From Candidatus Eiseniibacteriota bacterium (GTDB lineage Bacteria > Eisenbacteria > RBG-16-71-46): a stretch of 64,000 nt of DNA. Under the pieces are notes generated by a model. The model had not been told where the DNA came from. It saw only the letters and a program-made list of their open reading frames with translations, and ran no database searches. The position numbers and the translations under genes are program-made. Within the stretch, counting starts at the first letter, position 1; each line of letters starts with the position of its first letter. Positions 3,325-20,407 of this stretch are shown piece after piece. The DNA lies in assembly GCA_963717505.1 (NCBI GenBank), contig OY970342.1, positions 832,001 through 896,000 on the forward strand, read 5' to 3'.

Positions 3325-5571
<2,247 letters not shown>

Positions 5572-5578
5572 TCCTTCG

Positions 5579-6373
5579 TCAGCGAGCGTCCCGCCGGGAT
5601 CGGCCAGATGGCAGCTTCTCGTTGTTCCGCGCGCCGCCTCGCGGCTCGACCGGAGCGAGCCGCGCATCGCCCGAGGCATCGAGCATCGGGCTCGAGCGGT
5701 CTTCGGCGTGAGGTCCGTCCGAGTAAAGGAGCTTGAGCATCCCCCAGCTGACCTTGGGAACGTAGTCGGCGTCCATGCCATCCCAGGTCTGCGCCGGACC
5801 CGGCGCCGCAGACACCGGTGCGACGAAGTGAAAACGAGAGGCCGTGCGCTCGGGCTCACGCCGGCGCCGGCTGGCCGTGCGGACCCGGCGTCCGTCGAAG
5901 ATCAGGATTGAGAACCGCAGCGGCCGATCCGGAGCCAGGGCGACGCCGGCCACAACCGCCGTCACCGTGTCCCGCGCGGGATGGCGGCGAATACCGATGT
6001 GCCTCCACCCCGGATCGCGGAGCCGCTCGCCCCCATCGATTGACACCAGGAACCGGTACCAGACGACGACGGTCGAATCGCTGTTCGACCCGCGCTCTGG
6101 ATTCCACAGCTCGCACGACAGGGTGAGCGTGTCCTGGCTCACCGACGTCACGCGCAGATGGCCGGCCTTGACCGCCGCCGCGGCGTTACCCGTTCCGCCC
6201 GCGACCGCAGACCACAGGAGTCCCGACAAGATACCGATCCAGGTGGCGATGCGGCCGAATCGAACCGTAACCACAGCCGGACGGCGAGGGATGCAATCCA
6301 TCCCTCGCCGCGGCGTGACGTCACGATCGCCGGTCCTGACCCGATTGAGGACGATCATGACTCCGGTCCTCAC
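5579..6373 (-). CDS. Hypothetical exported protein
   Basis: 264-aa ORF with a hydrophobic segment (IATWIGILSGLLWSAVAG) followed by a beta-rich domain. GTG start overlaps the TGA of the upstream gene (GTGA); true start uncertain. Confidence 0.6.
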   Translation of the reverse strand: MRTGVMIVLNRVRTGDRDVTPRRGMDCIPRRPAVVTVRFGRIATWIGILSGLLWSAVAGGTGNAAAAVKAGHLRVTSVSQDTLTLSCELWNPERGSNSDSTVVVWYRFLVSIDGGERLRDPGWRHIGIRRHPARDTVTAVVAGVALAPDRPLRFSILIFDGRRVRTASRRRREPERTASRFHFVAPVSAAPGPAQTWDGMDADYVPKVSWGMLKLLYSDGPHAEDRSSPMLDASGDARLAPVEPRGGARNNEKLPSGRSRRDAR

Positions 6374-6762
6374 CAGCAGAAGTTGGGGTAGGAGACCGCC
6401 CGTTGCTGCTGATTGACCACGGTACCGGGGACGGTCTCGACCTCGATGCTGAGCTTGAGGCCGTGGGCGTCGCGCGGTGCGTAGAGCCGGAACACCTGAC
6501 CGGGCGCCAGGGGCATCAGCACCAGCTGCCAGGTGTGCAGCGGCGGCATGAACTCGCTGGCGCGAGCGATCAGGCGATAACGCATGGTCGAGGAGGTGGT
6601 GGTGCCGGCGTTGCGGATGTTGAAGATGTTGGAGCCCCGGCCGCAGACAGATTCGACGTTGAGGGTGACCTGGGCGTTGCTGCCATCGGCATGGGCGAAC
6701 GGAATCGAGAGGCAGAGGGCGGCGACCAGGGTCAGCATGAGCGACTTGCGATTGCGGTACAT
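6370..6762 (-). CDS. Small secreted protein, 130 aa (copy 1)
   Basis: AAGGAG RBS; signal peptide MYRNRKSLMLTLVAALCLSIPFAHA; beta-sandwich-like mature part with two Cys. Protein identical to 11323-11715. Confidence 0.85.
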   Translation of the reverse strand: MYRNRKSLMLTLVAALCLSIPFAHADGSNAQVTLNVESVCGRGSNIFNIRNAGTTTSSTMRYRLIARASEFMPPLHTWQLVLMPLAPGQVFRLYAPRDAHGLKLSIEVETVPGTVVNQQQRAVSYPNFCW

Positions 6763-7097
6763 GGTGGTGATCTCCTTAGAGTTGGTTGAGAGTGAGTGGT
6801 TGAAGTGAGTGAAGGGTTTTTGGTGGAGCGATCGAGCGAACTGGGATCCTCGGGGTAGAGCCGGTGGTGTTCGGGTGGTGCCGTCCTCCTTTCGCGAGAG
6901 CCATCGAGTGGTGAGTTGCTTCGCGGGGGAGGTAGAGCAGCGCACGTGCCGGTCGTGCGGCGGAGCGGGGCAAGGGCGCGAGGTGGCTCGGGGAGAGCGA
7001 GTTAGCGGGATGGGGGACGCGGGGCGGCGGCGCGGGCGGACTCCGCGCGCGGAGAGAAACTCTACGTCCGGCGAGGATTCCTCTCAGGACGTGAAGA
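6372..7097 (-). repeat. 726-bp inverted repeat, left arm
   Basis: Reverse complement of 10988-11713. The one mismatch I found is 6987 vs 11098 (non-coding part compared base by base; coding part gives identical translations). Confidence 0.97.
6936..6951 (-). promoter_or_regulatory. Sigma54 -24/-12 promoter (copy 1)
   Basis: CGGCACG-TGCG-CTGCT, i.e. GG-N10-GC, matching TGGCACG-N4-TTGCW. Confidence 0.7.
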
Positions 7098-7260
7098 GGG
7101 ACACGGGTGGGCGGCTTCGGGTGCGGGGGCCTTGTGACCCCATGAAGGCTCGCCTACATTTGCCCTGCTTGGAGAATTCTCGAGTGAGACAAGCGGCTCG
7201 ACCGCCATCAGGGATGCTCGAGGCGCAGCACGATCACCCGATCGACCGGAGGCAATCATC

Positions 7261-9204
7261 ATGATCGGCAGCGTGATCGACCGAACCTATCGCGTTGTCC
7301 GTCTGGTCGGCGACGGCGGGTTCGGAGTGGTTTACGAGTGCCAGGAACTGGAGCTCCATCGCTCGGTCGCCCTCAAGATGCTGAAGCCGGAGGTGACCGG
7401 AGAGAGTGAGATGCGGCGGTTCCTGGCGGAAGCGAAGAACATGGCCAGCTTGAACCACGCCAACGTGGTTCACATCTACCGTTTCGGCGTCTTCGAGGAC
7501 CGACCCTACATCGTCATGGAGTTCGTGCGCGGGCAAACACTCGATGAGCACGCGAAGCGGCAGCCTTCGATCCGGAACGTCCTCCAAGTGATGACCCAGG
7601 TGGCATCCGGCCTCTCCGCCATACACGGGATGACGATCGTGCACCGCGACCTGTCGCCAACGAACATCATGATCACCGAGGACGGCACGGCGAAGATCCT
7701 GGACCTCGGTCTGTCGCGGGACATGAGCAGCATGTCGGGCATGAACTCGAACCATCAGCTTCGAGGGACGCTCCCGTATGTCTCACCCGAGCAAATCGAG
7801 GAGCGGGGGGCCACGACTCTCTCGGAAATCTTCTCGTTCGGCGTGATCCTGTACGAGCAACTGACCGGGCAGCACCCGTTCCACGCCGAGCACCCGGTCT
7901 CGCTGATCTACAACATTGCCCAACGGGATCCGGACCCGGTCGGCGATCACCTGGAGAACTGCCCGCCGGAGCTGGCGGACCTTGTGCACGAATGCCTGCA
8001 CAAGAAGCCTGAGGATCGGCCGGCCAACATGGCGACGGTGAAGGAACGGCTCGACCGCATCTTGTCACGCCCGAGCCTCACCGCAGCCTCGCGCCCCGTC
8101 GTGGTAACCGCTGTCGAACCGCGGGCGACGCCACGCAATCCATACTTGAACCGCGTCATGATCAAGCACCGCGCCGACTTCTTCGGCCGCTCGCAGGACG
8201 TCAAGCGAATCTTTGCGCGGCTCAACGCTACGCCTCCCGGATCGATCTCCATCGTCGGGGAGCGCAAGATCGGGAAATCCTCGCTGCTGAACCACGTGTA
8301 CGCGCGCCAAACCCGGCAGACGTTCCTCGAGAATCCCGACGCGATGGTCATGGTGTTCCTGGACCTCCAAGAGGAGAAGGGAATGTCCATGCAAAGCTTC
8401 GTCAAGACCCTGCTCGGCATCGCCAACTATGAATTGCGCGGACGGCTGGACGTCTCCAGCTGCGCCCACAACCTCGACGGCGTGAAGGACTTGGTGCAGC
8501 GCCTGGACGCTGCGAACTACCGGCTGGCGATCCTGCTCGACGAGTTCGAGGGAGTGACGACGAACCCGAATTTCACGCTCGAGTTCTTCTCGTTCCTGCG
8601 CTACCTGGCCAATCACTACAACGTGGCCTACCTGACGTCTTCGGCATGCGACCTCCAGGTTCTCTGCCACACGAAGGAAATCTCGGACTCGCCATTTTTC
8701 AACATTTTTTCGACGATGCGTCTGGGGGTCTTCGAGCGATCGGAAGCCGATGAGCTCATTCGCGTTCCTTCGGAGCGTGTCGGCAAGCCGCTCGCCACCC
8801 ATACGGATCGGATCCTCGAGATGACGGGGCTGTTCCCGTTCTTCATCCAGATGGCGTGTTCACACGCCATCGAGCACCTGGACGAACACCCCGAGGCGAA
8901 GGCGCCGGATTTCGACGCGATCCGCCGCCGCTTCTACGAGGAGGCACGGCTCCACTTCCGCTATGTGTGGGATGGACTGGACGCGCACGAGCGGAGCACT
9001 CTGGTTCGGGTGGCTCAGGGCCGAGGCATTCCGGACTCGCTGAAGCACGTCCTGTCGGAGCTCGAGGTCCGGCACTACGTCGATGAAACACAGCGAGGCC
9101 CGCGGCTCTTTGCCGGTACGTTCGGACAGTACGTCCGCGAGGAAGCGAAGCGGATGCGGAAGCCTTCGCTCCTCGAGCGCATGTTCCAGGGCGCGGGGGG
9201 GTGA
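7261..9204 (+). CDS. Ser/Thr kinase fused to a STAND-like P-loop ATPase
   Basis: Kinase: GDGGFG, VALK, HRDLSPTN, DLG, GTLPYVSPE. ATPase: NPY...FFGR, Walker A GERKIGKS, Walker B LLDEFE, GLFP (GxP-like). GGAGG RBS. Confidence 0.9.
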   Translation: MIGSVIDRTYRVVRLVGDGGFGVVYECQELELHRSVALKMLKPEVTGESEMRRFLAEAKNMASLNHANVVHIYRFGVFEDRPYIVMEFVRGQTLDEHAKRQPSIRNVLQVMTQVASGLSAIHGMTIVHRDLSPTNIMITEDGTAKILDLGLSRDMSSMSGMNSNHQLRGTLPYVSPEQIEERGATTLSEIFSFGVILYEQLTGQHPFHAEHPVSLIYNIAQRDPDPVGDHLENCPPELADLVHECLHKKPEDRPANMATVKERLDRILSRPSLTAASRPVVVTAVEPRATPRNPYLNRVMIKHRADFFGRSQDVKRIFARLNATPPGSISIVGERKIGKSSLLNHVYARQTRQTFLENPDAMVMVFLDLQEEKGMSMQSFVKTLLGIANYELRGRLDVSSCAHNLDGVKDLVQRLDAANYRLAILLDEFEGVTTNPNFTLEFFSFLRYLANHYNVAYLTSSACDLQVLCHTKEISDSPFFNIFSTMRLGVFERSEADELIRVPSERVGKPLATHTDRILEMTGLFPFFIQMACSHAIEHLDEHPEAKAPDFDAIRRRFYEEARLHFRYVWDGLDAHERSTLVRVAQGRGIPDSLKHVLSELEVRHYVDETQRGPRLFAGTFGQYVREEAKRMRKPSLLERMFQGAGG

Positions 9205-9263
9205 CGCTCGGCGGCGCCGCCGCCCCCGGCGACCGCGGCGCACGAGTCACCGAGCCCGGAGCA

Positions 9264-10868
9264 TCATCCCCCGAGGCCGTACTCCTTGAGCTTCTTGTAG
9301 AGGTAGGACTCGCTGATTTTGAGTCGCGCCGCGAGCTTGGCCCGCGTCATCCGCGGATAGCGGCGGAGGGCTTCCTCGAGCAACGCCTTCTCCTGCTGAG
9401 CCAGACTTGCGGTCAGCCCCTCGTCGATGTCGGCGACCTCGCCGCCGAGAGCGACTCCCGGCGTTGCACCCCGTTCAGGGGGGGCCTGGTCGGCGGCCGC
9501 GGCCCCTGAGCCACGCGTCGGGCCCAGCAGCCGTAGAACCATCCCCTTCCCGACCCGGCCGTCGGGCTTCTCCAGGACGAGGCGCGCCGCGAGTTGTTCG
9601 AGAGAGCGAACGTTGCCCGGCCAGGCGAAGTCCAGAGTCCTCAGGAACTCCTCTGCCTCGGGCTCGAGCTCGACCCAGCGCCCCTCTTCGCTCTGATCCA
9701 GGCAATGGCGTAGGACCAGGGGAATGTCCTCGACACGTTCGCGGAGCGGCGGGATGCGCACGGGAACGAAGTTGAGCCGCTCGAAGAGATCCCGGCGGAA
9801 CCGGCCCTGCATCACCTCTTCCTCCAGGTCGCGATTCGTGGCGGCAATCACCCGGACGTCGGACTTCAGTTCCTTTGGATCTCCGACACGCTCGTATGTC
9901 CGCTCCTGCAGCAGCCTCAGCAGCTTTGGCTGGATCTCGAGAGGAAGGTCCCCGATCTCGTCCAGGAACAACGTCCCCCCGTCTGCCGCCGGGACCTTCC
10001 CCAGACGATCGCTGACCGCACCGGTGAACGCTCCCTTGCGGTGGCCGAACAGCTCTGCTTCGACCATGCCACGTTCGAGGGAGGGGCAGAAGACCGTGAT
10101 CAACGGCTGCCGTGCGCGGTGGCCACCGTAGTGAATGATGCGCGCCAGGATGCTCTTGCCGGTACCCGTCTCACCCAGGATGAGAACGGGGAAGGTGGCC
10201 GAGGCGATCTTGTGCACTTGAGTCCCCAGTTGCTGAACCACCGGGGATTTTCCGATGAAGCGGCCGAAGGACCAGTCGCGGGACTGCGCGTCGCGGCTGG
10301 CTTCGGCTTCTTCGCGGAACTTCGACTCCGAAATCACGAGCTGATCCCGCTCGTGCAGGACGCTCCGGCTGGCCCTCAGCGCCTCGAGGACGGGGCCGGC
10401 CAGGTCGAGCAGGCCCCGCAGCAGTTCCTGGTGTTCGCGGGTGAAGTGTCCGGCCCGCCCGTTCTCGAGATGGACCAGGGCGGCAATCCCGTCGCTGGTC
10501 TTGATCGGCATGCACAGCACCGCCGCCATATGCACCGCCATGACCGAGCGCTGATGCTTGAAGCGCGGATCCAGAACCGCGCTGTAGAGGGTGATGCCCT
10601 CGCCGGTCTTCAGGACCTGTTCGAAGATGCCCTGGCTGAACGACGCGGACTCCCCATCGAGTCGTTCGGGCGAGAAGTTGTGGAGCACCTGGAAACTCAG
10701 CGTCCCACCACTCGACACCTCCACGAACACGCCGCGATCGGCCTGGGTCCGTGCGACCGCCTCGTCCAGAATCGTCCGCAGGACCGTGATGGGTTCGGCG
10801 ATCTGACACAGAACGGCCCGCAGAGCGTCCAGTAGAGGTTTCGAAGGAAGTGCTTCGGCAGCCGGCAT
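9264..10868 (-). CDS. Sigma54-dependent transcriptional activator (GAF-AAA+-HTH bEBP)
   Basis: GAF-like N-terminus (DPRF...AVLCMPI), GETGTGKS, ELFGHRKGAFTGA, LFLDEIG, WPGNVR, C-terminal Fis-type HTH. Confidence 0.95.
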   Translation of the reverse strand: MPAAEALPSKPLLDALRAVLCQIAEPITVLRTILDEAVARTQADRGVFVEVSSGGTLSFQVLHNFSPERLDGESASFSQGIFEQVLKTGEGITLYSAVLDPRFKHQRSVMAVHMAAVLCMPIKTSDGIAALVHLENGRAGHFTREHQELLRGLLDLAGPVLEALRASRSVLHERDQLVISESKFREEAEASRDAQSRDWSFGRFIGKSPVVQQLGTQVHKIASATFPVLILGETGTGKSILARIIHYGGHRARQPLITVFCPSLERGMVEAELFGHRKGAFTGAVSDRLGKVPAADGGTLFLDEIGDLPLEIQPKLLRLLQERTYERVGDPKELKSDVRVIAATNRDLEEEVMQGRFRRDLFERLNFVPVRIPPLRERVEDIPLVLRHCLDQSEEGRWVELEPEAEEFLRTLDFAWPGNVRSLEQLAARLVLEKPDGRVGKGMVLRLLGPTRGSGAAAADQAPPERGATPGVALGGEVADIDEGLTASLAQQEKALLEEALRRYPRMTRAKLAARLKISESYLYKKLKEYGLGG

Positions 10869-10921
10869 CGAACGAAGCTCCTGCGGATCGACAGAAACGC
10901 AATCGATAGAAAAGCGCTCGG

Positions 10922-10927
10922 ATTATA
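10922..10927 (-). promoter_or_regulatory. Sigma70-type -10 box for the bEBP gene
   Basis: Perfect TATAAT on the minus strand about 55 nt upstream of the bEBP start, in GC-rich DNA. No good -35. Confidence 0.45.
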
Positions 10928-10992
10928 GGACGGCTGGGGTCTCCGGAGCACTCCGGAGGGATGCAAAGCCTCTCGCGCCGCGCACGGTCTTC

Positions 10993-11044
10993 ACGTCCTG
11001 AGAGGAATCCTCGCCGGACGTAGAGTTTCTCTCCGCGCGCGGAG
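10993..11044. promoter_or_regulatory. Candidate upstream activator sequences (two palindromes); mirrored at 7041-7092
   Basis: ACGTCCtGaGAGGA-a-TCCTCgCcGGACGT (10993-11021) and perfect CTCCGCGCGCGGAG (11031-11044), about 90-140 bp upstream of the -24 GG. Confidence 0.5.
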
Positions 11045-11133
11045 TCCGCCCGCGCCGCCGCCCCGCGTCCCCCATCCCGCTAACTCGCTCTCCCCGAACC
11101 ACCTCGCGCCCTTGCCCCGCTCCGCCGCACGAC

Positions 11134-11149
11134 CGGCACGTGCGCTGCT
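11134..11149 (+). promoter_or_regulatory. Sigma54 -24/-12 promoter (copy 2)
   Basis: CGGCACGTGCGCTGCT with GG at 11135-11136 and GC at 11147-11148; divergent from a sigma54 activator gene. Confidence 0.72.
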
Positions 11150-11322
11150 CTACCTCCCCCGCGAAGCAACTCACCACTCGATGGCTCTCGCGAAAGGAGG
11201 ACGGCACCACCCGAACACCACCGGCTCTACCCCGAGGATCCCAGTTCGCTCGATCGCTCCACCAAAAACCCTTCACTCACTTCAACCACTCACTCTCAAC
11301 CAACTCTAAGGAGATCACCACC

Positions 11323-11715
11323 ATGTACCGCAATCGCAAGTCGCTCATGCTGACCCTGGTCGCCGCCCTCTGCCTCTCGATTCCGTTCGCCCATGCCGAT
11401 GGCAGCAACGCCCAGGTCACCCTCAACGTCGAATCTGTCTGCGGCCGGGGCTCCAACATCTTCAACATCCGCAACGCCGGCACCACCACCTCCTCGACCA
11501 TGCGTTATCGCCTGATCGCTCGCGCCAGCGAGTTCATGCCGCCGCTGCACACCTGGCAGCTGGTGCTGATGCCCCTGGCGCCCGGTCAGGTGTTCCGGCT
11601 CTACGCACCGCGCGACGCCCACGGCCTCAAGCTCAGCATCGAGGTCGAGACCGTCCCCGGTACCGTGGTCAATCAGCAGCAACGGGCGGTCTCCTACCCC
11701 AACTTCTGCTGGTAA
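11323..11715 (+). CDS. Small secreted protein, 130 aa (copy 2)
   Basis: Same protein as 6370-6762; AAGGAG RBS preceded by a C/A-rich tract. Confidence 0.85.
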   Translation: MYRNRKSLMLTLVAALCLSIPFAHADGSNAQVTLNVESVCGRGSNIFNIRNAGTTTSSTMRYRLIARASEFMPPLHTWQLVLMPLAPGQVFRLYAPRDAHGLKLSIEVETVPGTVVNQQQRAVSYPNFCW

Positions 11716-11742
11716 CGCCGGTTCGACAGGCGGCAATGAATG

Positions 11743-11774
11743 CGAGGGGTGGCGAAAGCCACCCCTCGTTGTTT
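11743..11774 (+). terminator. Rho-independent terminator
   Basis: CGAGGGGTGGC-GAAA-GCCACCCCTCG (11-bp perfect stem) followed by TTGTTT. Confidence 0.85.
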
Positions 11775-11801
11775 CGTGCGCGCCGCACCGCCTGGGCACC
11801 G

Positions 11802-14800
11802 TCATCGGATGAGCACCATGCGGGCGCGCAGCACCTGACCACCGTGCATCAGTCGAATGAAATAGAGCCCCGCCCGCAGACGCGGAGAGTCGAGCGTCAC
11901 CACGTGGCTCCCCGGGCCGAGCCCGCCGACATCGCGGCGCAGCACCCGGCGCCCGGCGAGGTCGATCACCTCGAGCACCCCCGGGTCGCGGCTCGGCAGG
12001 GTGAATGCGATCCGTGCCGTTCCTATCGCGGGGTTGGGACGCGCTCCGGCCAGCGCCAGCTTCGGCGGTCCTTCAATCTCGACATCAGTGGTCGAGGTGA
12101 TCTGGACGTCAAATCCGGGCGGACCCGGCGGGTCCTCGCGATTGTCCACGTGGTCACGGGCACGGCTGTAGAACGCGTACGTGTGGGGCTGGAGGTCACC
12201 GGGGCGCCGCTCGAAGATGGCGGAGGTGAGCGGGGTGGTGAGCCACTCATCTTTGAAGGCACCGTCCTCGAAGTAGTAGACCGTGTAGTTCAGGACGTCG
12301 GCGGGGTCGCCCTCCGGTGCCCAGCTCACCGTGAAGCTGCGCTCCATCTGGGGATTGCCCAACGTCAGCACGTGGCTGGCCGGCGGCGTGTCGTCCACGT
12401 AGTTGGTCCACGCCGGGATCGGGACGGTCATCGGCGGGTTGGTGTCGAATCGGATGGTCGCCGAGTTGGTGATCTCGGTGTGCTGGGGCAGGCCGCTGCG
12501 CGGTCGCACGGTGAACAGGACGCTGCCCTCGCCCTCGGGTGAGTTGTTGTTGGCGGGCAGGAACCCGGCGCCGGGCGGCAGCGGACCATTGGGGTTCACC
12601 GAGTTGAAGTACCAGGTCAGCGTCCTGCCGATCAGGGTCACGTTCACGTCGACTCTCAGGTTCGGGTTCAGGAGCTTCGATTCCGTCCGATCGAATTGCG
12701 GGTAGCAATGGTAGGGAGTGCCGGTCGGGTCCTTGCCGAAGGTGACGGTGCCGAGCCTGAGGGTGGCCGGGTCGAGATCGGCGTCGAGCACGTCGGTCAC
12801 CTGCGCGTGCTGGGCGGGGAACATCGCGCCGGCCAGGTTCTCGAAGTGGATCGTGTAGGTGAGGTCATCCCGACTGGTGATGGTGCCGCCGATGCCCCGG
12901 TTGCCGAACTTGTCGCTGGGGTCGACCGCCCCCCCGGCCTCGACCAGCAGCACCTCGCGCCAGGTGGTCGACAGCGACTGGCCGCAGCCCGTCGGAACCG
13001 AGTCCTGCTCGACCGACTGGAGCATGAAGCCCAGCGCCTGGCGGGCTTCGGCCAGCGCGGCGGCCAGGCTGGCGGCGCCCTCGCACTGCCAGCCGATCTT
13101 GGCCCACACCCCGATCCCATTCATCGCCTGGACTTGCGGCTGGCCGGCGAGACTGTCGTTGAGTGCCGTGAGCTGGCTCCCCATGCAGGCGGTGTTGGTG
13201 ATCACGGCGCTCATGCAGTTGCGAAACGCGGTGTTGTTCACCCACGGCGGCGTCAACGCCACGGTGAGCGGGAACGTCGTGGGAGCGGGGACCGTCAGGT
13301 ACACCCTGCGGACCGAGGTCCCCGGCGGCACGCGCGGGATGATCATCGCCAGGTAGCGGCCGCCGGCACTGGCCAAAGTGTCCGGGAGCAGGCTCCAGAT
13401 GGGTTCGCCACCGCTCTGCGGCGGATCGGCGAGCGGGAAGTCGAGCGCGACGGTGGCACTGTCGGGTATGCCAGCGATCCACAGCGGCACGGTCAGCGCA
13501 TCGATATTGCCGGGGTTCTGGAGAACGAGGTCGAAGGCGGTTGGATAGCCGGTGCGGATGACGTCCGGGCCAATGATGTCGACGCGCAACGGGGCCGCCG
13601 CCCCGCTGTCGATGGTGAAGCCGTTGGGCAGGGACGCAGTCTGGAGGTCGGGGTTGACGACCACCACGTCCCACAGGCCCTGCGCCTGGCCGGCTAGGTC
13701 GAAGGTCGCGGTGAGGCTGAGACCATCGTCCGCCACTAGCACCCCGCTGCCCGGAATGTCCGGTTGTCCCGAGCGCGAGAGCCTGACCGTGGCGCCGTTC
13801 AGCAGGTTGTGTCCCGCGACCGTAACCGTCACGACGCCAGTGTTACCGCCGCTCGCTGGCTGCACCGCCTGGACGTCCGGCATGGCTGCGATGGCAGCGA
13901 TGCCGCTCTGTGGCAACCCGCCGATGCTGGTGAAGGACCCGCCTGCGTAGATCGTAGAGCCGCTCACCGTGAGGGCCAACACGAGGCTGGCGGCGTCCGG
14001 ATTCCAGGCGGTGGCGGCACCGGCCGTGGCATCGAGGGCGGCGACGTAGTTACGCGCTTGCGCGCCGATGCTGGTGAAGTCCCCGCCCGCGTAGACCGTG
14101 GAGCCGCTCACCGCCAGGGCGCGGACCCCGGCGTTGGCGCTCGGGCTCCATGCGGAGGCCACTCCGGTGATGGTATCAAGGGCGGCGACGTAGCTGCGCG
14201 CTTGTGCGCCGATGCTGCTGAAGGCCCCGCCCGCGTACACCGTTGAGCCGTTCACCGCCAGGGCGAGGACGAAGCTGTTGGCGTTTGGGTTCCAGGCAGT
14301 GGCGAGCCCGGTGGTGGCATTGAGCGCCGCGATGCGGTTGCGCGCCTGCCCGCCGATGCTGGTGAAGTCCCCGCCCGCATAGACCGTGGAGCCGCTCACC
14401 GCCAGGGCGGAGACGTAGCCGTTCGCGTTCGGGTTCCAGGCGGTGGCCATGCCGGTCGTGGCATCGAGGGCGGCGATGTAATTGCGCGCTTGCCCGCCGA
14501 TACTGGTGAAGTCGCCGCCCGCGTAGACCGTGGAGCCGCTCACCGCGAGGGCCCGGACACTCTGGTCGGCGTTCGGGCTCCAGGCAGTGGCGAGCCCGGT
14601 GGTGGCATCGAGCGACGCGATCCGGTTGCGCGCCTGCCCGCCGATGCTGGTGAAGCCCCCCACCGCGTAGACGGTGGAACCGCTCACCCCCAGGGCCAAG
14701 ACGGGCCCATCGGCGTTCGGGTTCCAGGCGGTGGCGGCCCCGGTTGTGGCGTCCAGGGCGGCGATGTTGTTGCGCGTCTGCCCACCGAGGCTGGTGAATT

Positions 14801-15989
14801 CTCCCCCTGCATAAATGGTGGAGCCACTCACGGCGAGGACCCACACCCCGTTGTTGGCGTTGGGGTCCCAGGCGGTGGCCATACCGGTCGTGGCATCGAG
14901 AGCGGCGATGAAGTTGCGCGCTTGCCCACCGATGCTGGTGAAGTATCCGCCCGCATAAACGGTAAGACCGCTCACCGCGAGGGTGTAGACCTCGCCGTCG
15001 GTGCTCGGGTTCCAGGCAGTGGCGGCACCGGTCCCGGTGTCGAGGGCGGCAATGGTGTTGCGTGTCGAATCGCCGATGCTGGTGAAGGGCCCGCACGCGT
15101 AGACGATGTTGTCGCTTACCGCGATCCCCCAGACGTTGGAGTTCGCGTTCGGGTTCCAGGCGGTGGCCGCGCCGGTCGTGGCGTCGAGGGCGGCGATGTG
15201 GTTGCGAGTCGAATCGCCGATGATCGTGAAGTTCCCTCCCGCGTAGATGGTGGAGTTTCTCACCGCGATCACGTAGAGGTAAGAGTTCGCGTTCGGGTTC
15301 CAGGCGGTGGCCGCGCCGCTCGTAGCATCGAGGGCGGCGATGTAGTTGCGAGTCGAATCGCCGATGCTGGTGAAGGCCCCGCACGCATAGACTGTGGAGC
15401 TGCTCACCGCGAGGCTGCGGACCTCGCCGTCGGCGCTAGGGTTCCAGGCAGTGGCCTCACCGGTCGCGGCATCGAGGGCGGCGATGTAGTTGCGCGCCTG
15501 CCCGCCGATGGTGGTGAAGATCCCGCCCGCGTAGACGGTGGTGCCGCTCACCGCGAGGCAATTAATCAGCGCGTCCGCGTTCGGATTCCAGGTGGATACC
15601 GACATGTCCGAAGCCACGTGGGCAACGTTTGACCGTGGAATGCCTCCCACGGCGGTGAACCATCCTCCCACGTACCAGCCACCTGCTCCGTCGGGGACCG
15701 CCGCATACACGATGCCGGTGATTCTTGGGAACGACGACGGCAGCCCGCCGCTCGCGACATCGATGGGAACGCCACCGCCGGTGGCGGGCCCCACCTGGCT
15801 GAAGGATCCGCCAATGTAAACCGTCCCTCCCTCGCGGACGACGCCATTCACCTGGCCATTCGTGACCCAAAGGTTCTCGTCGATCGCCTGTGCGATCCCC
15901 TCGCCGGCCGTCAACGGCACGAACGCGATGGCTAGGCCGAGGGTGACCAGGTCACGGAAGCGCCGCAAAAAGCCCCGTCGACGCGCCAG
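11802..15989 (-). CDS. Large secreted beta-propeller repeat protein with IPT-like, DP(N/S)DK-type and T9SS-A/FlgD-like C-terminal domains (paralogue 1)
   Basis: About 48-aa repeats 'ALAVSGSTVYAGGxFTSIGGQARNxIAALDATTGxATAWNPNA'; C-terminus 'RPNP...DLAGRRV...GLYFIRL...MVLIR'. ORF is open to 16184; start placed at a CTG behind GAGGAGG (uncertain). Confidence 0.88.
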   Translation of the reverse strand: MARRRGFLRRFRDLVTLGLAIAFVPLTAGEGIAQAIDENLWVTNGQVNGVVREGGTVYIGGSFSQVGPATGGGVPIDVASGGLPSSFPRITGIVYAAVPDGAGGWYVGGWFTAVGGIPRSNVAHVASDMSVSTWNPNADALINCLAVSGTTVYAGGIFTTIGGQARNYIAALDAATGEATAWNPSADGEVRSLAVSSSTVYACGAFTSIGDSTRNYIAALDATSGAATAWNPNANSYLYVIAVRNSTIYAGGNFTIIGDSTRNHIAALDATTGAATAWNPNANSNVWGIAVSDNIVYACGPFTSIGDSTRNTIAALDTGTGAATAWNPSTDGEVYTLAVSGLTVYAGGYFTSIGGQARNFIAALDATTGMATAWDPNANNGVWVLAVSGSTIYAGGEFTSLGGQTRNNIAALDATTGAATAWNPNADGPVLALGVSGSTVYAVGGFTSIGGQARNRIASLDATTGLATAWSPNADQSVRALAVSGSTVYAGGDFTSIGGQARNYIAALDATTGMATAWNPNANGYVSALAVSGSTVYAGGDFTSIGGQARNRIAALNATTGLATAWNPNANSFVLALAVNGSTVYAGGAFSSIGAQARSYVAALDTITGVASAWSPSANAGVRALAVSGSTVYAGGDFTSIGAQARNYVAALDATAGAATAWNPDAASLVLALTVSGSTIYAGGSFTSIGGLPQSGIAAIAAMPDVQAVQPASGGNTGVVTVTVAGHNLLNGATVRLSRSGQPDIPGSGVLVADDGLSLTATFDLAGQAQGLWDVVVVNPDLQTASLPNGFTIDSGAAAPLRVDIIGPDVIRTGYPTAFDLVLQNPGNIDALTVPLWIAGIPDSATVALDFPLADPPQSGGEPIWSLLPDTLASAGGRYLAMIIPRVPPGTSVRRVYLTVPAPTTFPLTVALTPPWVNNTAFRNCMSAVITNTACMGSQLTALNDSLAGQPQVQAMNGIGVWAKIGWQCEGAASLAAALAEARQALGFMLQSVEQDSVPTGCGQSLSTTWREVLLVEAGGAVDPSDKFGNRGIGGTITSRDDLTYTIHFENLAGAMFPAQHAQVTDVLDADLDPATLRLGTVTFGKDPTGTPYHCYPQFDRTESKLLNPNLRVDVNVTLIGRTLTWYFNSVNPNGPLPPGAGFLPANNNSPEGEGSVLFTVRPRSGLPQHTEITNSATIRFDTNPPMTVPIPAWTNYVDDTPPASHVLTLGNPQMERSFTVSWAPEGDPADVLNYTVYYFEDGAFKDEWLTTPLTSAIFERRPGDLQPHTYAFYSRARDHVDNREDPPGPPGFDVQITSTTDVEIEGPPKLALAGARPNPAIGTARIAFTLPSRDPGVLEVIDLAGRRVLRRDVGGLGPGSHVVTLDSPRLRAGLYFIRLMHGGQVLRARMVLIR

Positions 15990-16180
15990 GAGATGACCCT
16001 CCTCGCGATGCCCAGCACCGCCATGCTCTCCTTGGACCTCAACGGATGTACACGGCGACGACGCGAAGGTTGGCAGTCGCCCCGGTTGCGAGCGGTCGCC
16101 GAATTCATCCGAACACCCCAATCGCGCCGGCACCGACTGCCACGCGGCGCATAGCTCGGGCTTCGGCCCAACCTGAGCGG

Positions 16181-19100
16181 TCATCGGATGAGCACCATGC
16201 GGGCGCGCAGCACCTGCCCACCGTGCATCAGTCGAATGAAATAGAGCCCCGCCCGCAGACGCGGGGAGTCGAGCGTCACCACGTGGCTCCCTGGGCCGAG
16301 CGCGCCGACGTCGCGGCGCAGCACCCGGCGCCCGGCGACGTCGATCACCTCGAGCACCGCCGGGTCGCGGCTCGGTAGGGTGAACGCGATCCGTGCCGAA
16401 CCAATCGCGGGGTTGGGACGCGCTCCGGCCAGCGCCAGCTTTGGCGGTCCTTCAATCTCGACGTCGGTGGTCGAGGTGGTCTGGACGTCGAATCCCGGCG
16501 GATCCGGCGGGTCCTCGCGATTGTCCACGTGGTCACGGGCCTGGCTGTAGAAGCGGTAGACGTGGGGTTGGTGGTCATCGCTGCGCGGCTCGAACACCCC
16601 AAAGGTGAGCGGTGTGCTGAGCCGCGGCAGGAAGGGACCGCCGTCCTCTGAGGCGTAGAGGGTGTAGTTCAGGACGTCGGCGGGGTCGCTATCCGGGGCC
16701 CAGCTCACCGTGAAGCTGCGGCCGATTTGGGGACTGCCCAACGTCAGCACGTGGCTCGCCGGCGGCGTGACGTCCACGAAGTTAGTCCACGCCGGGGTGG
16801 TCATCGTCGGGTTGGTGTCGAATCGGATGGTCGCCGAGTTGGAGATCTCGGTGTGCTGGGGTAGACCGTTGCGCGGTTTCACCGTGAACAGCACGCTGCC
16901 CTCGCCCTCGCCGTGGTCGCCATTCGGAGGCAGGAACCCGGCGTCGGGCGGCAGCGGACCATTGGGGTTCACGGAGTTGAAGTACCAGGTCAGCGTCCTG
17001 CCGATCAGGGTCACGTTCACGTCGACTCTCAGGTTCGAGTTCAGGAGCCTCGATTCCGTCCGATCGAATTCCGGGTAGCAATGGTGGGGAGTGCCGGTCG
17101 GGTCCTTGCCGAAGGTGACGGTGCCGAGCCTGAGGGTGGTCAGGTCGAGATCGGCGTCGAGCACGTCGGTCACCTGCGCGTGCTGGGCGGGGAACAAGGC
17201 GCCGGCCAGGTTCTCGAAGCGGATCGTGTAGGTGAGGTCATCCTGGCCGGTGATGGTGCTGTCCAAGCCGCGGTTGCCAAACTTGTCGTTGGGGTCGATC
17301 GAACCGCCGGCCTCGACCAGCAGCACCTCGCGCCAGGTGGTCGACAGCGACTGGCCGCAGCCCGTCGGGACCGAGTCCTGCTCGACCGACTGGAGCATGA
17401 AACCCAACGCCTGACGCGCCTCGGCCAGCGCGGGAGCCAGACCGAAGGCGCCCTCGCACTGCCAGCCGATCTTCGCCCACACCCCGATCCCATTCATCGC
17501 TTGAATCCCGAGATGGCTCACGAGGTCGTTGAGTTCCGTGAGATGGCTCCCCATGCAATTGGTGTTGGTGATCACGGCGCTCATGCAGTTGCGGAACACC
17601 GTGTTGTTCACCCACGGTGGCGTCAACGCCACGGTGAGCGGGAACGTCGTGGGTGCGGGGACCGTCAGGTACACCCTGCGGACTGAGGTCCCGGGCGGCA
17701 CGCGCGGGATGATCATCGCCAGGTAGCGGCCGCCGGCACTGGTCAAAGTGTCGGGAAGCATGCTCCAGACTGGCTCGCCTGCGTCTTGGGGCGGATCGGC
17801 AAGCGGGAAGTCGAGCGTGACGGTGGCGCTGGTGGGTATACCGGCGATCCACAGCGGCACGGTCAGCGCATCGATGTTGCCGGGGTTCTGGAGGACGAGG
17901 TCGAAGGCGGTTGGATACCCGGTGCGGATGACGTCGGGGCCAATGATGTCCACGCGCAGCGGGACCCCTTCCACGCTGTCGATGGTGAAGCCACCGGCGA
18001 GCGTGGCTGTCTGAAGATCGGGGGTGGTGACCACAACGTCCCATGCACCGACCGCTGCATCCTGCAGATCGAATCTCGCGCCCAGGCTCATTCCGTCTGA
18101 CGCCACCGGGAAGGTGGTGGCGATGATGTCCGGCTCGCCCGAACGGGAGAGTTTCGCCTCCGCGCCGGCCACCAGCCCGCTCCCCGACAACGTCACCGTC
18201 ACCTCGCCGCCGTTGCCGCCGCTCGCCGGCTGCGAGGAAACGAGCGACGGGGCGGCGGCGATCGCGGCGGCGTAGGCCTGGGGCCGACCCCCGACACCGA
18301 GAAAGTCTCCGCCCACGTACAAGGTGACGCCGCTGACCGCGAGCGCTGAAATGCTGAAAGGCTGGGTGGGCCCCTTGGTAAACACCCTGGCGTTGGGATC
18401 GAAGGGGCTGACCCGGGGATTCCACGCGCCGACGGCCGTGCTAGCCGCATCGAACGCGGCGATGAACTTGCGCGGCTGACCGCCGATCGTCGTGAAGTCT
18501 CCTGATGCATAGAGCGTAGTGCCGCTCACTGTCAGTCCGAGGACGTCGAGATCGGCGCCCGGGTCCCAGAGGGTGGCGTGTCCACTCGTGGTGTCGAGGG
18601 CGGCAATGTGGCTACGCAGCTTGCCATCCACGCTGGTGAAACCTCCGCCGATGTAAACCGTCGAGCCGCTCACAGCGATCGCCGACACGTTGTCGTTTGC
18701 GTTCGGATCCCAGGCAGTGGCGGCCCCGGTCGTGGCGTCGAGAGCGGCAATGCGATTGCGGGTCTGGCCGCCGATGCCGGTGAAATACCCACCGGCGTAG
18801 ACCGTCGAGCCGACCACCGCGAGCGCGTCCACCTCGCTGTTGGCGTTCGGGTTGAATGCCGTGGCCGCTCCGCTCGTGCCGTCCAGGGCCGCGATCCAGT
18901 TGCGCGTCTGACCTCCGATCTGACTGAAATTGCCGGCGACATAGATGGTCGAGCCGCTTGGTGCGATGGCGTAGACCGGTCCGATGGCATTGGGATTCCA
19001 CGCGGTCGCGAGGCCGGTCGTGACATCGAGCGCGGCGATTCGATTGCGCGGTTGACCACCGATGCCGGTGAAGTCCCCGCCGGCGTAGAGCGTGGAGCCG

Positions 19101-20407
19101 CTCACGGCCAATGTGCGGACCGGCGCAGTCGCGTTCGGGTTCCAGCTCGTGGCGGAGCCGGTCGAGGCGTCGAGCGCGGCGATGTTGTTGCGTACCAGTC
19201 CGCCGAAGCTGGTGAACACGCCGCCCGCATAGACCACGGAGCCGTTCATCTCCAGGCACTGGACCTCGTGGTTCGGGTTGGGATTCCATGCGCTGGCAAA
19301 CCCGGTTGCTGTGTCGAGGGCCGCAATGAAGTTACGCGACTGGCCGCCGACGCTGGTGAAGCCGCCACCCGCATACAGTGTCGACCCGCTCAGGCGGAGG
19401 GCGTACGTCCTGCCGTTCGGATTTGGGTTCCAGGCGGTCGCGAGCCCGCTGGTCGCGGAGAGGGCGGCGATGGCGCGCCGGGGTTGACCGCCGATACTAA
19501 GGAAGTCGCCGGCCACGTAGATTGTCGAGCCGGCGACCACGATATCGAGAACCGGATGGGTCGAGTTCGGGTCCCAGCTCGTGGGCGTATTGCTCCCGGT
19601 GTTGATCGCCGCGATCCGATTCCGTGGCTGGCCGGCGACGTGCTCGAAATAGCCGCCGATGTAGACCGTCGAGTCGCTGAGCGCGAGTGCATAGACATCG
19701 GCGTCCGGCTGTGGATCCCAACTCGTGGCCAGCCCGGTCATGGCATCGAGGGCCGCGACGTGCCTGCGAGTCTGCCCGCCGATGCTGGTGAATTCGCCGG
19801 CGACATAGACCGTAGAGCCGCTGACGGCGATCCGCCTGATAAAGAACCCGTTCGAGCCGGGGCTCCAGGCGGTGGCGGCGCCGGTCGTGGCGTCGAGTGC
19901 GGCCAGATTGTGGCGGGCCTGACCGCCGATGCTGTCGAAGCTGCCCGCGACGTAGACCACGGAACCGCTCACAGCGAACGCGCAGACGTACCCGTACATC
20001 CCGGCGCCGGTTGACGCGCCGCCAAACATGCGCGGATTCCAGGACGTCACCGACAGGTCCGCGGCGAGATGGGCGACACCGGAACGCGGCACGCCACCCA
20101 CGCTGGTGAACGATCCGCCGAGATACCACCCACCCGCTCCGTCCGGGACGATCGTCCGCACGATGCCGGCGACCTTCGGGAACCCGGCGATTGGTGCTCC
20201 GCTCGTCGCATGCAGCGGCACCCCGCTGCCGGTCGCCGGCCCGACCCGCGAGAACTGACCCCCGATGTAGATCGTACCCGCATCGCTCACGATGGCGTTC
20301 ACCGCGCCGTTCGTCACCCAGAGAGTCGAATCGACGGATTGGGCGGAGGCCATGCGGGCCGCGCCGAGGAGCGCGAGCAGGACCAGTCCGAGCGGTCGGA
20401 GAGCCAT
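16181..20407 (-). CDS. Large secreted beta-propeller repeat protein (paralogue 2)
   Basis: Signal peptide MALRPLGLVLLALLGAARMASA|Q, 14 propeller repeats, SIDPNDK motif; C-terminal part nearly identical to paralogue 1. Confidence 0.92.
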   Translation of the reverse strand: MALRPLGLVLLALLGAARMASAQSVDSTLWVTNGAVNAIVSDAGTIYIGGQFSRVGPATGSGVPLHATSGAPIAGFPKVAGIVRTIVPDGAGGWYLGGSFTSVGGVPRSGVAHLAADLSVTSWNPRMFGGASTGAGMYGYVCAFAVSGSVVYVAGSFDSIGGQARHNLAALDATTGAATAWSPGSNGFFIRRIAVSGSTVYVAGEFTSIGGQTRRHVAALDAMTGLATSWDPQPDADVYALALSDSTVYIGGYFEHVAGQPRNRIAAINTGSNTPTSWDPNSTHPVLDIVVAGSTIYVAGDFLSIGGQPRRAIAALSATSGLATAWNPNPNGRTYALRLSGSTLYAGGGFTSVGGQSRNFIAALDTATGFASAWNPNPNHEVQCLEMNGSVVYAGGVFTSFGGLVRNNIAALDASTGSATSWNPNATAPVRTLAVSGSTLYAGGDFTGIGGQPRNRIAALDVTTGLATAWNPNAIGPVYAIAPSGSTIYVAGNFSQIGGQTRNWIAALDGTSGAATAFNPNANSEVDALAVVGSTVYAGGYFTGIGGQTRNRIAALDATTGAATAWDPNANDNVSAIAVSGSTVYIGGGFTSVDGKLRSHIAALDTTSGHATLWDPGADLDVLGLTVSGTTLYASGDFTTIGGQPRKFIAAFDAASTAVGAWNPRVSPFDPNARVFTKGPTQPFSISALAVSGVTLYVGGDFLGVGGRPQAYAAAIAAAPSLVSSQPASGGNGGEVTVTLSGSGLVAGAEAKLSRSGEPDIIATTFPVASDGMSLGARFDLQDAAVGAWDVVVTTPDLQTATLAGGFTIDSVEGVPLRVDIIGPDVIRTGYPTAFDLVLQNPGNIDALTVPLWIAGIPTSATVTLDFPLADPPQDAGEPVWSMLPDTLTSAGGRYLAMIIPRVPPGTSVRRVYLTVPAPTTFPLTVALTPPWVNNTVFRNCMSAVITNTNCMGSHLTELNDLVSHLGIQAMNGIGVWAKIGWQCEGAFGLAPALAEARQALGFMLQSVEQDSVPTGCGQSLSTTWREVLLVEAGGSIDPNDKFGNRGLDSTITGQDDLTYTIRFENLAGALFPAQHAQVTDVLDADLDLTTLRLGTVTFGKDPTGTPHHCYPEFDRTESRLLNSNLRVDVNVTLIGRTLTWYFNSVNPNGPLPPDAGFLPPNGDHGEGEGSVLFTVKPRNGLPQHTEISNSATIRFDTNPTMTTPAWTNFVDVTPPASHVLTLGSPQIGRSFTVSWAPDSDPADVLNYTLYASEDGGPFLPRLSTPLTFGVFEPRSDDHQPHVYRFYSQARDHVDNREDPPDPPGFDVQTTSTTDVEIEGPPKLALAGARPNPAIGSARIAFTLPSRDPAVLEVIDVAGRRVLRRDVGALGPGSHVVTLDSPRLRAGLYFIRLMHGGQVLRARMVLIR

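Follow-up and report, generated by a model that had tools for sequence, protein, structure and literature searches.

The DNA analysed here, a stretch of 64,000 nucleotides (nt) referred to below as the window, belongs to a Candidatus Eiseniibacteriota bacterium (NCBI GenBank assembly GCA_963717505.1, contig OY970342.1, positions 832,001 to 896,000 of the forward strand). It contains an inverted repeat with two nearly identical arms, each of which holds a candidate sigma-54 promoter and a gene for a small protein with a predicted signal peptide. Two convergent genes, one for a sigma-54 activator and one for a kinase fused to an ATPase, lie in the loop between the arms. The structure most likely reflects the concerted evolution of an old duplicate, which would have resulted in two co-regulated genes for small secreted proteins under sigma-54 control. 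The genes and structural features of the locus were as follows, with positions counted from the first base of the window.

5579-6358, minus strand: gene downstream of the left small gene, 259 amino acids (aa) from the ATG at 6358, with the frame open from a GTG at 6373.
6285-6307, no strand assigned: left hairpin, CGAGGGATG-loop-CATCCCTCG, located within the downstream gene, 60 nt past the stop codon of the left copy.
6370-6762, minus strand: left small gene, encoding a protein identical to that of the right copy.
6372-7097, minus strand: left arm, comprising a candidate activator site, a candidate sigma-54 promoter, a leader and the small gene.
7261-9204, plus strand: gene for a Ser/Thr kinase fused to an nSTAND2 nucleoside triphosphatase (NTPase), 647 aa, convergent with the activator gene.
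9264-10868, minus strand: gene for an activator with GAF, sigma-54 AAA+ and putative helix-turn-helix (HTH) regions, 534 aa, divergent from the right arm.
10988-11713, plus strand: right arm, the mirror of the left arm.
11323-11715, plus strand: right small gene, 130 aa.
11742-11769, plus strand: right terminator hairpin, GCGAGGGGTGG-CGAAAG-CCACCCCTCGT with a T-rich tail, found by a terminator scan beyond the identity, 26 nt past the stop codon of the right copy.

The arms were 726 nt long and 3890 nt apart according to a repeat search of the window. A base-by-base comparison found them complementary at 725 of 726 positions, with the C at 6987 against 11098 as the sole mismatch, and at either end the complementarity dropped to the noise level over a single base. 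On the outer side the identity stopped at the T of the stop codon, which was TGA in the left copy and TAA in the right one; on the inner side it began 5 nt ahead of a dyad, ACGTCC-N17-GGACGT, at 10993-11021. Exactly two copies of the arm existed in the whole genome, which comprised 4,162,540 bases in one contig with 67.7% G+C. The bases outside the two outer arm ends shared no direct repeat of the kind expected of a composite transposon or insertion sequence, and the arms encoded the small protein alone and no transposase. A domain scan of six open reading frames (ORFs), namely the two loop genes and four neighbours, detected no recombinase or transposase domain. The original prediction, made from the sequence before this analysis, had described a 726-bp inverted repeat with one mismatch, identical from just before the first palindrome to the differing stop codons; it placed palindromes, a GG-N10-GC promoter, a leader (about 160 nt) and a 130-aa secreted-protein gene in each arm, and two convergent genes but no recombinase or transposase in the loop. 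Its coordinates and its description were borne out on all of these points. The repeat is real and non-random.

The same prediction had regarded each arm as the duplicate of an entire transcription unit, and this part could not be kept. The terminator of the right copy lay outside the identity, and the left copy continued into the downstream gene. The left copy thus heads a two-gene unit, the right copy ends at a terminator beyond the repeat, and the arms are not fully symmetric as transcription units. The downstream gene had a coding-type G+C content at third codon positions (GC3) of 0.80; its protein carried a membrane anchor or signal segment and had no match in Pfam.

The two hairpins were informative for the age of the duplication. 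A hairpin of the form GAGGG[GA]TG..CA[TC]CCCTC stood behind both copies of the small gene, and these were its only two occurrences in 4.16 Mb. The spacers between stop codon and hairpin differed, with about 60 nt on the left versus 26-28 nt on the right, and no alignment between them was possible. Because the same hairpin followed both copies past spacers that could not be aligned, the original duplication must have reached beyond the stop codon and be much older than the 726-bp identity. Both hairpins were homologous to those behind the copies of a relative, including both copies at its locus L007. A further direct similarity of about 40 nt (73%, with the exact 11-mer GAGGGATGCAA) was observed between 6286-6325 and about 10953-10995, relating the left-copy hairpin to the sequence at the inner side of the right arm. 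Either chance or the leftover terminator hairpin of a tandem copy once present upstream may account for it.

Copies of the unit were also found in a related genus. At three loci of this genus (L006, L008, and L009) the small gene, the downstream gene and a gene for a Clp-family ATPase followed one another, which is the left arrangement of the window. The protein encoded downstream of the left copy shared 37% aa identity over 242 residues with the product of the same-position gene at these loci (E 4e-17). Locus L007 comprised the 3' end of one copy with its terminator and then a full unit with upstream region, promoter, leader, gene and terminator. At positions 1-1060 of L007, two right-type copies stood in direct tandem, each with its own terminator, and with the Clp-side copy this amounted to at least three copies. 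Positions 4830-9000 of L007 were 100% identical to contig C128 of genome G024, and contig C182 of the same genome corresponded to L009, which holds the Clp-side copy. This indicated that both types of copy occur in one organism, which belongs to the same family as the genome of the window. All contigs of this relative broke off within or at the edge of the repeated unit, a usual effect of repeats on short-read assembly. Relatives had been proposed as the place to look for single versus double copies; the related genus held left-type and right-type copies, and synteny at the right site was not seen there.

The copies were more similar within than between genomes. Identity was 99.9% within the window and 85% within the relative, versus 69-70% between the two. 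The copies of the relative formed a mosaic, with identities in successive 50-nt segments of 94, 98, 88, 92, 70, 54, 72, 62, 60, 100, 98, 96, 100, 100, and 95%. By region, identity was 88-98% in the upstream part and the promoter, 54-72% in the late leader and the signal peptide, and 95-100% where the mature protein is encoded. The pattern is as patchy gene conversion would give. The original prediction had offered recent duplication and homogenisation as alternatives, and the hairpin beyond the identity together with the mosaic copies of the relative favours homogenisation.

Each arm carried the following regulatory features, given here for the right arm with the mirror positions where they were determined.

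10993-11021, right arm: dyad ACGTCC-N17-GGACGT.
11031-11044, no strand assigned: perfect 14-nt palindrome CTCCGCGCGCGGAG, a candidate activator binding site, with its mirror at 7041-7054.
11134-11149, plus strand: candidate sigma-54 promoter CGGCACG-TGCG-CTGCT (GG-N10-GC), with the predicted start (+1) near 11160.
6936-6951, minus strand: mirror sigma-54 promoter candidate, with the predicted +1 near 6925.
11160-11322, plus strand: 5' leader of about 163 nt, of which the first ~70 nt are conserved with the relative.
11308-11314, plus strand: Shine-Dalgarno sequence AAGGAGA, followed by the ATG at 11323.

Sigma-54 promoters have GG and GC elements 10 nt apart in a context that resembles TGGCAC-N5-TTGCW. 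The promoters of both arms had this spacing. Loci L006 and L007 of the relative kept TGGCAC-N5-CTGCT in register although the upstream DNA was only ~70% identical. Two distant family members from other genera had similar elements ahead of the start codon, namely TGGCAT-N5-GTGCT at ~195 nt (L069) and TGGCACG-N4-CTGCA at ~58 nt (L070). The -24 and -12 elements were thus kept across three other lineages, and the promoter is a good sigma-54 candidate on the basis of this conservation.

The CTCCGCGCGCGGAG palindrome spanned roughly -129 to -116 relative to the predicted start. Genome-wide, and with one mismatch allowed, it was present in the two arms only; perfect 14-nt palindromes of any sequence were uncommon, with 911 genome-wide and a rate of 0.033 per 150 nt. 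The relative had a dyad, CTCT-N6-AGAG, at the corresponding position. The dyad ACGTCC-N17-GGACGT was considered as a rare signal and rejected, since it was no rarer than chance with free spacing and occurred 0.096 times per 150 nt with fixed spacing.

A CCUCC...GGAGG hairpin was predicted in the leader, where a consensus fold of three sequences had 15 pairs and 0 compensatory changes. The fold of the whole leader was no better than that of shuffled sequences (z -0.51), and a search of 5500-12500 against Rfam returned nothing but a chance CRISPR-DR row with E 0.8. Leader nt 1-70 (11160-11230 and 6855-6925) were nearly as conserved between the genera as the promoter. This part contained GAAAGGAGG, far 5' of the real ribosome-binding site, and the leader at L069 had the same GAAAGGAGG followed by a possible upstream ORF of 19 codons.

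The activator gene in the loop appeared intact. Its product matched Sigma54_activat (PF00158) with 209 bits against a cut-off of 20.2 and GAF_2 with 45.9 bits; HTH_8 scored 18.8 bits, below the cut-off of 22. The Walker A motif GETGTGKS stood at residue 232 and the GAFTGA motif at 279. The best partial NCBIfam matches, NifA (310 versus 529) and NorR (299 versus 476), were both far below the equivalog cut-offs, as was every NCBIfam score below its own, and PADLOC gave generic kinase and activator-domain matches only. The layout resembles those of NifA, NorR and PspF, with their divergently placed targets, in that an activator with a GAF domain, an AAA+ domain with GAFTGA and a putative HTH sits beside a GG-N10-GC promoter with an upstream dyad. 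It differs from them in that the activator of the window belongs to no named equivalog and the target is duplicated, with the second copy 3.9 kb off and provided with its own upstream site. The adjacent GAF activator is a plausible and likely regulator of the arm promoters.

The small gene encodes a predicted Sec-type signal peptide, MYRNRKSLMLTLVAALCLSIPFAHA/DG (AHA/DG), read from the sequence, and a mature protein of 105 aa. Residues C40 and C129, which are predicted to form a disulfide, and the C-terminal PNFCW were kept in the four closest family members. The protein had no match in Pfam, NCBIfam or PADLOC, and it did not reach the gathering cut-off of CARDB. A search of 5.8 billion proteins gave 4 matches; a profile search against 1.84 billion representatives gave 14 at E 0.001 or better, of which three were long proteins aligned in several short stretches. 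A family member was present in 2 of the 40 relatives first searched and in 4 of 206 genomes sampled from the phylum, the genome of the window included. Two of the matches, P0002 and P0004, lay on contigs of 728 and 742 nt, about the length of an arm. This is a weak hint of collapsed repeats in other organisms, in a collection whose contigs are mostly short.

An AlphaFold (AF2) model built from 14 sequences had eight strands and a mean predicted local distance difference test score (pLDDT) of 79.9. Foldseek found no match in the PDB at E 0.001 or better. VIA-align gave Z scores of ~7 to many immunoglobulin-like (Ig-like) sandwiches, among them the CARDB structure 3idu_A (Z 7.1, root-mean-square deviation 2.9, 89 residues) and 2l0d (Z 7.1); a Z of 7 is in the range of a common fold arrangement, and 3idu_A was tied with many other Ig-like domains. 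Pfam CARDB was matched by 3 of the 14 family members (E up to 1, best 2.7e-5), and the further member at L070 reached 36.7 bits against a cut-off of 22.7. The ESM Atlas returned unnamed clusters and, as no more than a lead, one CARDB cluster (0.81). In our reading, the small protein is a secreted CARDB-like domain that has diverged and stands alone. CARDB domains commonly occur as repeats within large surface proteins. Like CARDB (PF07705), the protein of the window is a predicted Ig-like beta-sandwich; unlike it, this protein is a stand-alone mature domain with a conserved C-terminal PNFCW and no Pfam match.

Taken together, the arms are probably old paralogous copies that were homogenised by gene conversion, with control by sigma-54 and the GAF activator. 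They would be paralogues of one unit consisting of an activator site, a sigma-54 promoter, a leader and a small secreted CARDB-like gene. Homologous recombination would have copied one arm onto the other, as gene conversion between inverted repeats, and the copied tract would have covered all the sequence in which the copies still resembled each other, beginning in the regulatory DNA upstream and ending at the stop codon. The tract ends where the older homology ends, as homology-dependent conversion predicts. Both copies would most likely be switched on by sigma-54 together with the GAF activator beside the right arm, and with two copies, twice as much of one secreted protein would be made. 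The downstream gene for a membrane or secreted protein would also be driven by the left copy. The kinase-STAND gene probably arrived through a rearrangement and may stand outside the circuit. If the arms crossed over, the 3.9-kb loop would be inverted with every promoter still linked to its gene.

Several observations weigh against this reading. As to the conversion, strong selection on the promoter and the mature protein could have added to the mosaic pattern in the relative. The gene beyond the right-type copies at L007 was not the right neighbour in the window; positional orthology thus holds for the left copy only, and the orthology of the right copy depends on spacer-plus-terminator homology. 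L006 and L007 came from different samples, although both tie to one metagenome-assembled genome (MAG). No strand-changing joint, as an inversion would produce, was listed at the arm in a mapping of public contigs that barely probed it, with contigs of 150-500 nt at a depth of 2-3 over 5000-10987. As to the control, the motif GGCACG-N4-NTGC had 81 matches in the genome versus ~110 expected by base composition and was thus not rarer than chance; the motif alone therefore proves nothing, and the evidence for the promoter is its conservation. The only rpoN locus above the Pfam cut-off (G000:C1:3872746-3874180, in an lptB-rpoN-hpf-like context) was split over at least five frames. The genome contained about 25-30 sigma-54 activator paralogues, some of them split. 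No activator was found in the flanks fetched for other members of the small-protein family, so that the pairing of activator and target rests on adjacency in one genome. The closest orthologue of the activator (G104:C110, locus L068, 66% over 523 aa) stood amid unrelated peptide genes.

The rpoN frames may reflect a cluster of assembly errors or a dead or recently broken gene. The amino-acid sequence of each piece was well conserved, and the C-terminus was 93% identical to that of a relative. We take the frames as local indel errors, given a single-contig assembly of 86.7% completeness that contains other split genes.

At L068, positions 4357-11300 held the activator orthologue beside an HlyD-like gene and an ATP-binding cassette (ABC) exporter with a C39 peptidase. 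Three tandem genes there encoded near-identical lysine-rich peptides of 43 aa (MKTQTHLKAGRL.SNHNETLV...) behind a GG-N10-GC element (TGGCAT..CTGCT). From its sequence, L068 looks like a sigma-54-controlled cluster for exported peptides. Adjacent, multi-copy genes for small secreted products behind sigma-54-type promoters may be a habit of this activator clade; the pairing in the window is not thereby proven. The activator at G024:C3 (65%) was considered as an orthologue of the loop gene and rejected, since it was the orthologue of a paralogue at 2.243 Mb. A GG-N10-GC motif after that paralogue was also rejected, with no plausible gene behind it.

Conversion between inverted gene copies has a known model in the tuf genes. 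The original tuf conversion papers are reportedly those of Abdulkarim and Hughes from 1996 and of Hughes from 2000. According to a later account (PMC8262849), conversion between the inverted copies of the Salmonella tuf pair depends on RecA and RecB and is often linked to inversion. Like tufA and tufB of Salmonella and E. coli (PMC8262849), the arms are two inverted near-identical copies in one chromosome, with the tract confined to the homology; there is likewise no dedicated recombinase, and the DNA between the copies is expected to become inverted as a by-product. In contrast to the tuf pair, the copies of the window are 3.9 kb apart rather than hundreds of kb, and their tract takes in all of the regulatory region. 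Their gene encodes a rare accessory secreted protein instead of a core translation factor, and conversion is here read from sequence. The class of mechanism, a concerted evolution like that of tufA and tufB, is thus already known.

A different explanation is that a single inverted duplication of 726 bp happened recently and suffered one substitution since, without any conversion. One mismatch in 726 nt and the clean ends are what it would produce, and the patchy occurrence of the family among relatives and phylum genomes would allow a unit that is mobile within genomes. It is nevertheless unlikely, because the locus-specific hairpin follows both copies past the identity and behind unalignable spacers, the related genus already holds both types of copy, and the copies of the relative are mosaic and not uniformly identical.

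A more elaborate possibility concerns the kinase. In a three-part module, the STAND kinase would sense a signal and control the GAF activator, which would fire both promoters, and the repeat would be selected to hold the circuit together or to flip the loop. The tight packing, with each loop gene divergent from one arm, agrees with such a module. So does the prediction of nSTAND2 proteins as counter-invader sensors (Kaur et al. 2021, eLife, PMC8195603), a paper that also predicts a two-gene nSTAND2 counter-invader system. The kinase protein itself matched Pkinase (184 bits) and nSTAND2 (PF20702, 146 bits versus a cut-off of 24) and carried the motifs HRDL (residue 128) and GERKIGKS (Walker A, residue 333); it was the sole full-length copy in the genome.

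The context of its orthologues argues against the module. Orthologues with 58-71% identity in the STAND part were found in 8 of 88 genomes of the family, and the activator and the small gene were absent near the kinase orthologue at all nine loci examined. At the three loci where the upstream side was inspected and assembled (L046, L047, and L048, in G084, G081, and G072), the orthologue followed a gene for a protein of ~725 aa with STAND and PEGA regions. This partner matched ATPase_2, AAA_16 and PEGA and had no nSTAND2 match at E 0.001 or better. Its homologue in the genome of the window stood alone at G000:C1:1762506-1764704, 0.92 Mb from the kinase gene, and none was in the window. This indicated that a two-gene pair has been split in this genome, and a rearrangement seems to have carried the kinase gene along as a passenger. 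The genome also had at least ~45 Ser/Thr kinase genes, so that adjacency means little, and every promoter would stay with its gene after a flip. On these grounds the three-part module is distinctly improbable; the kinase-STAND ATPase is not a conserved partner of the other genes, and its membership in the module is not supported, nor is a functional inversion of the loop. Of the symmetric module proposed originally, in which one activator fires two targets, the conserved promoter, the intact adjacent activator and the arm-unique palindrome remain; the kinase as a member is unsupported, and the units are not fully symmetric.

As in the predicted two-gene nSTAND2 system (PMC8195603), the loop kinase has an nSTAND2 domain and the orthologues in relatives pair with a second STAND-type ATPase; the locus differs in that the pair is split in this genome and the partner lacks an nSTAND2 match at the same threshold. 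Beyond the right arm, 11802-20407 encoded two giant paralogous proteins side by side (1460 and 1408 aa), of which the 1460-aa one matched DUF5122 beta-propeller repeats and DUF7619. At L050 and L051, in two further genera, the kinase-nSTAND2 gene had homologues of these large proteins as neighbours. The signalling families of this 4.16-Mb genome are very large in general, as the numbers of kinase matches and sigma-54 activators given above indicate.

The arms also recall hin, fim and shufflons, in which inverted repeats enclose a segment that could flip. Unlike those systems, the window has no recombinase gene, its arms measure 726 bp instead of tens of bp, and its promoters lie within the arms and face outward. 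With promoters placed in this manner, a flip alters no link between a promoter and its gene. A more far-reaching reading, and a very unlikely one, takes these 5.3 kb as a "mini inverted-repeat replicon region" that recombination maintains, comparable to the inverted repeat (IR) of plastids. RecA alone would flip the loop at a measurable frequency, copy correction would keep the two sigma-54 units identical, and the relocated STAND kinase would have been recruited as a sensor that gates the GAF activator. If that were true, a single counter-invader or stress signal would release twice the amount of a new secreted CARDB-like protein.

The assembly at the arms was examined with the public contigs introduced above. 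The junction at 7097/7098 was bridged by contigs of two studies, X2 at 6988-7281 (0 differences) and X3 at 6934-7164 (2 differences). Among the matches listed, no contig bridged the junction at 6371/6372. In the junction check proposed originally, contigs thus spanned the inner-left junction, with no bridge among the matches listed at the outer-left one. Both alleles of 6987 were seen, C of the left arm in the junction-bridging X3 contig and T of the right arm in an X4 contig at 6932-7082. The X2 contig started one base past the single-nucleotide polymorphism at 6987, as a graph branch would. Among the matches listed, contigs from runs X1, X2, and X4 of study P1 matched the arm without difference except at 6987. 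An assembly artefact is unlikely. The least probable of the explanations is indeed that one copy was placed twice, or that diverged copies were made identical by multi-mapped reads in polishing: the assembly has an error-prone long-read look, with one contig at 86.7% completeness, the rpoN split over frames and split activator paralogues, but homologues of both outer contexts exist in the relative, contigs of two studies bridge the inner-left junction and both alleles occur in contigs, and the repeat is internal with a unique 3.9-kb loop, so that no fold-back at a contig end is involved.

Among the papers listed on Eisenbacteria, titles and abstract openings contained nothing on this locus. 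The finding opens no long-standing question. Near-identical short repeats break the short-read assemblies of relatives at this very locus, and the arrangement would thereby be hidden in most MAGs. The limits of the conversion tract are explained by where the older homology stops. A very small and uncharacterised family of putatively sigma-54-driven, predicted secreted CARDB-like proteins has been defined, and one of the ~25-30 enhancer-binding proteins in the genome gains a one-site candidate regulon. For this uncultured soil and sediment lineage, the locus would represent a clean natural case of the concerted evolution of a whole regulatory-plus-coding unit.

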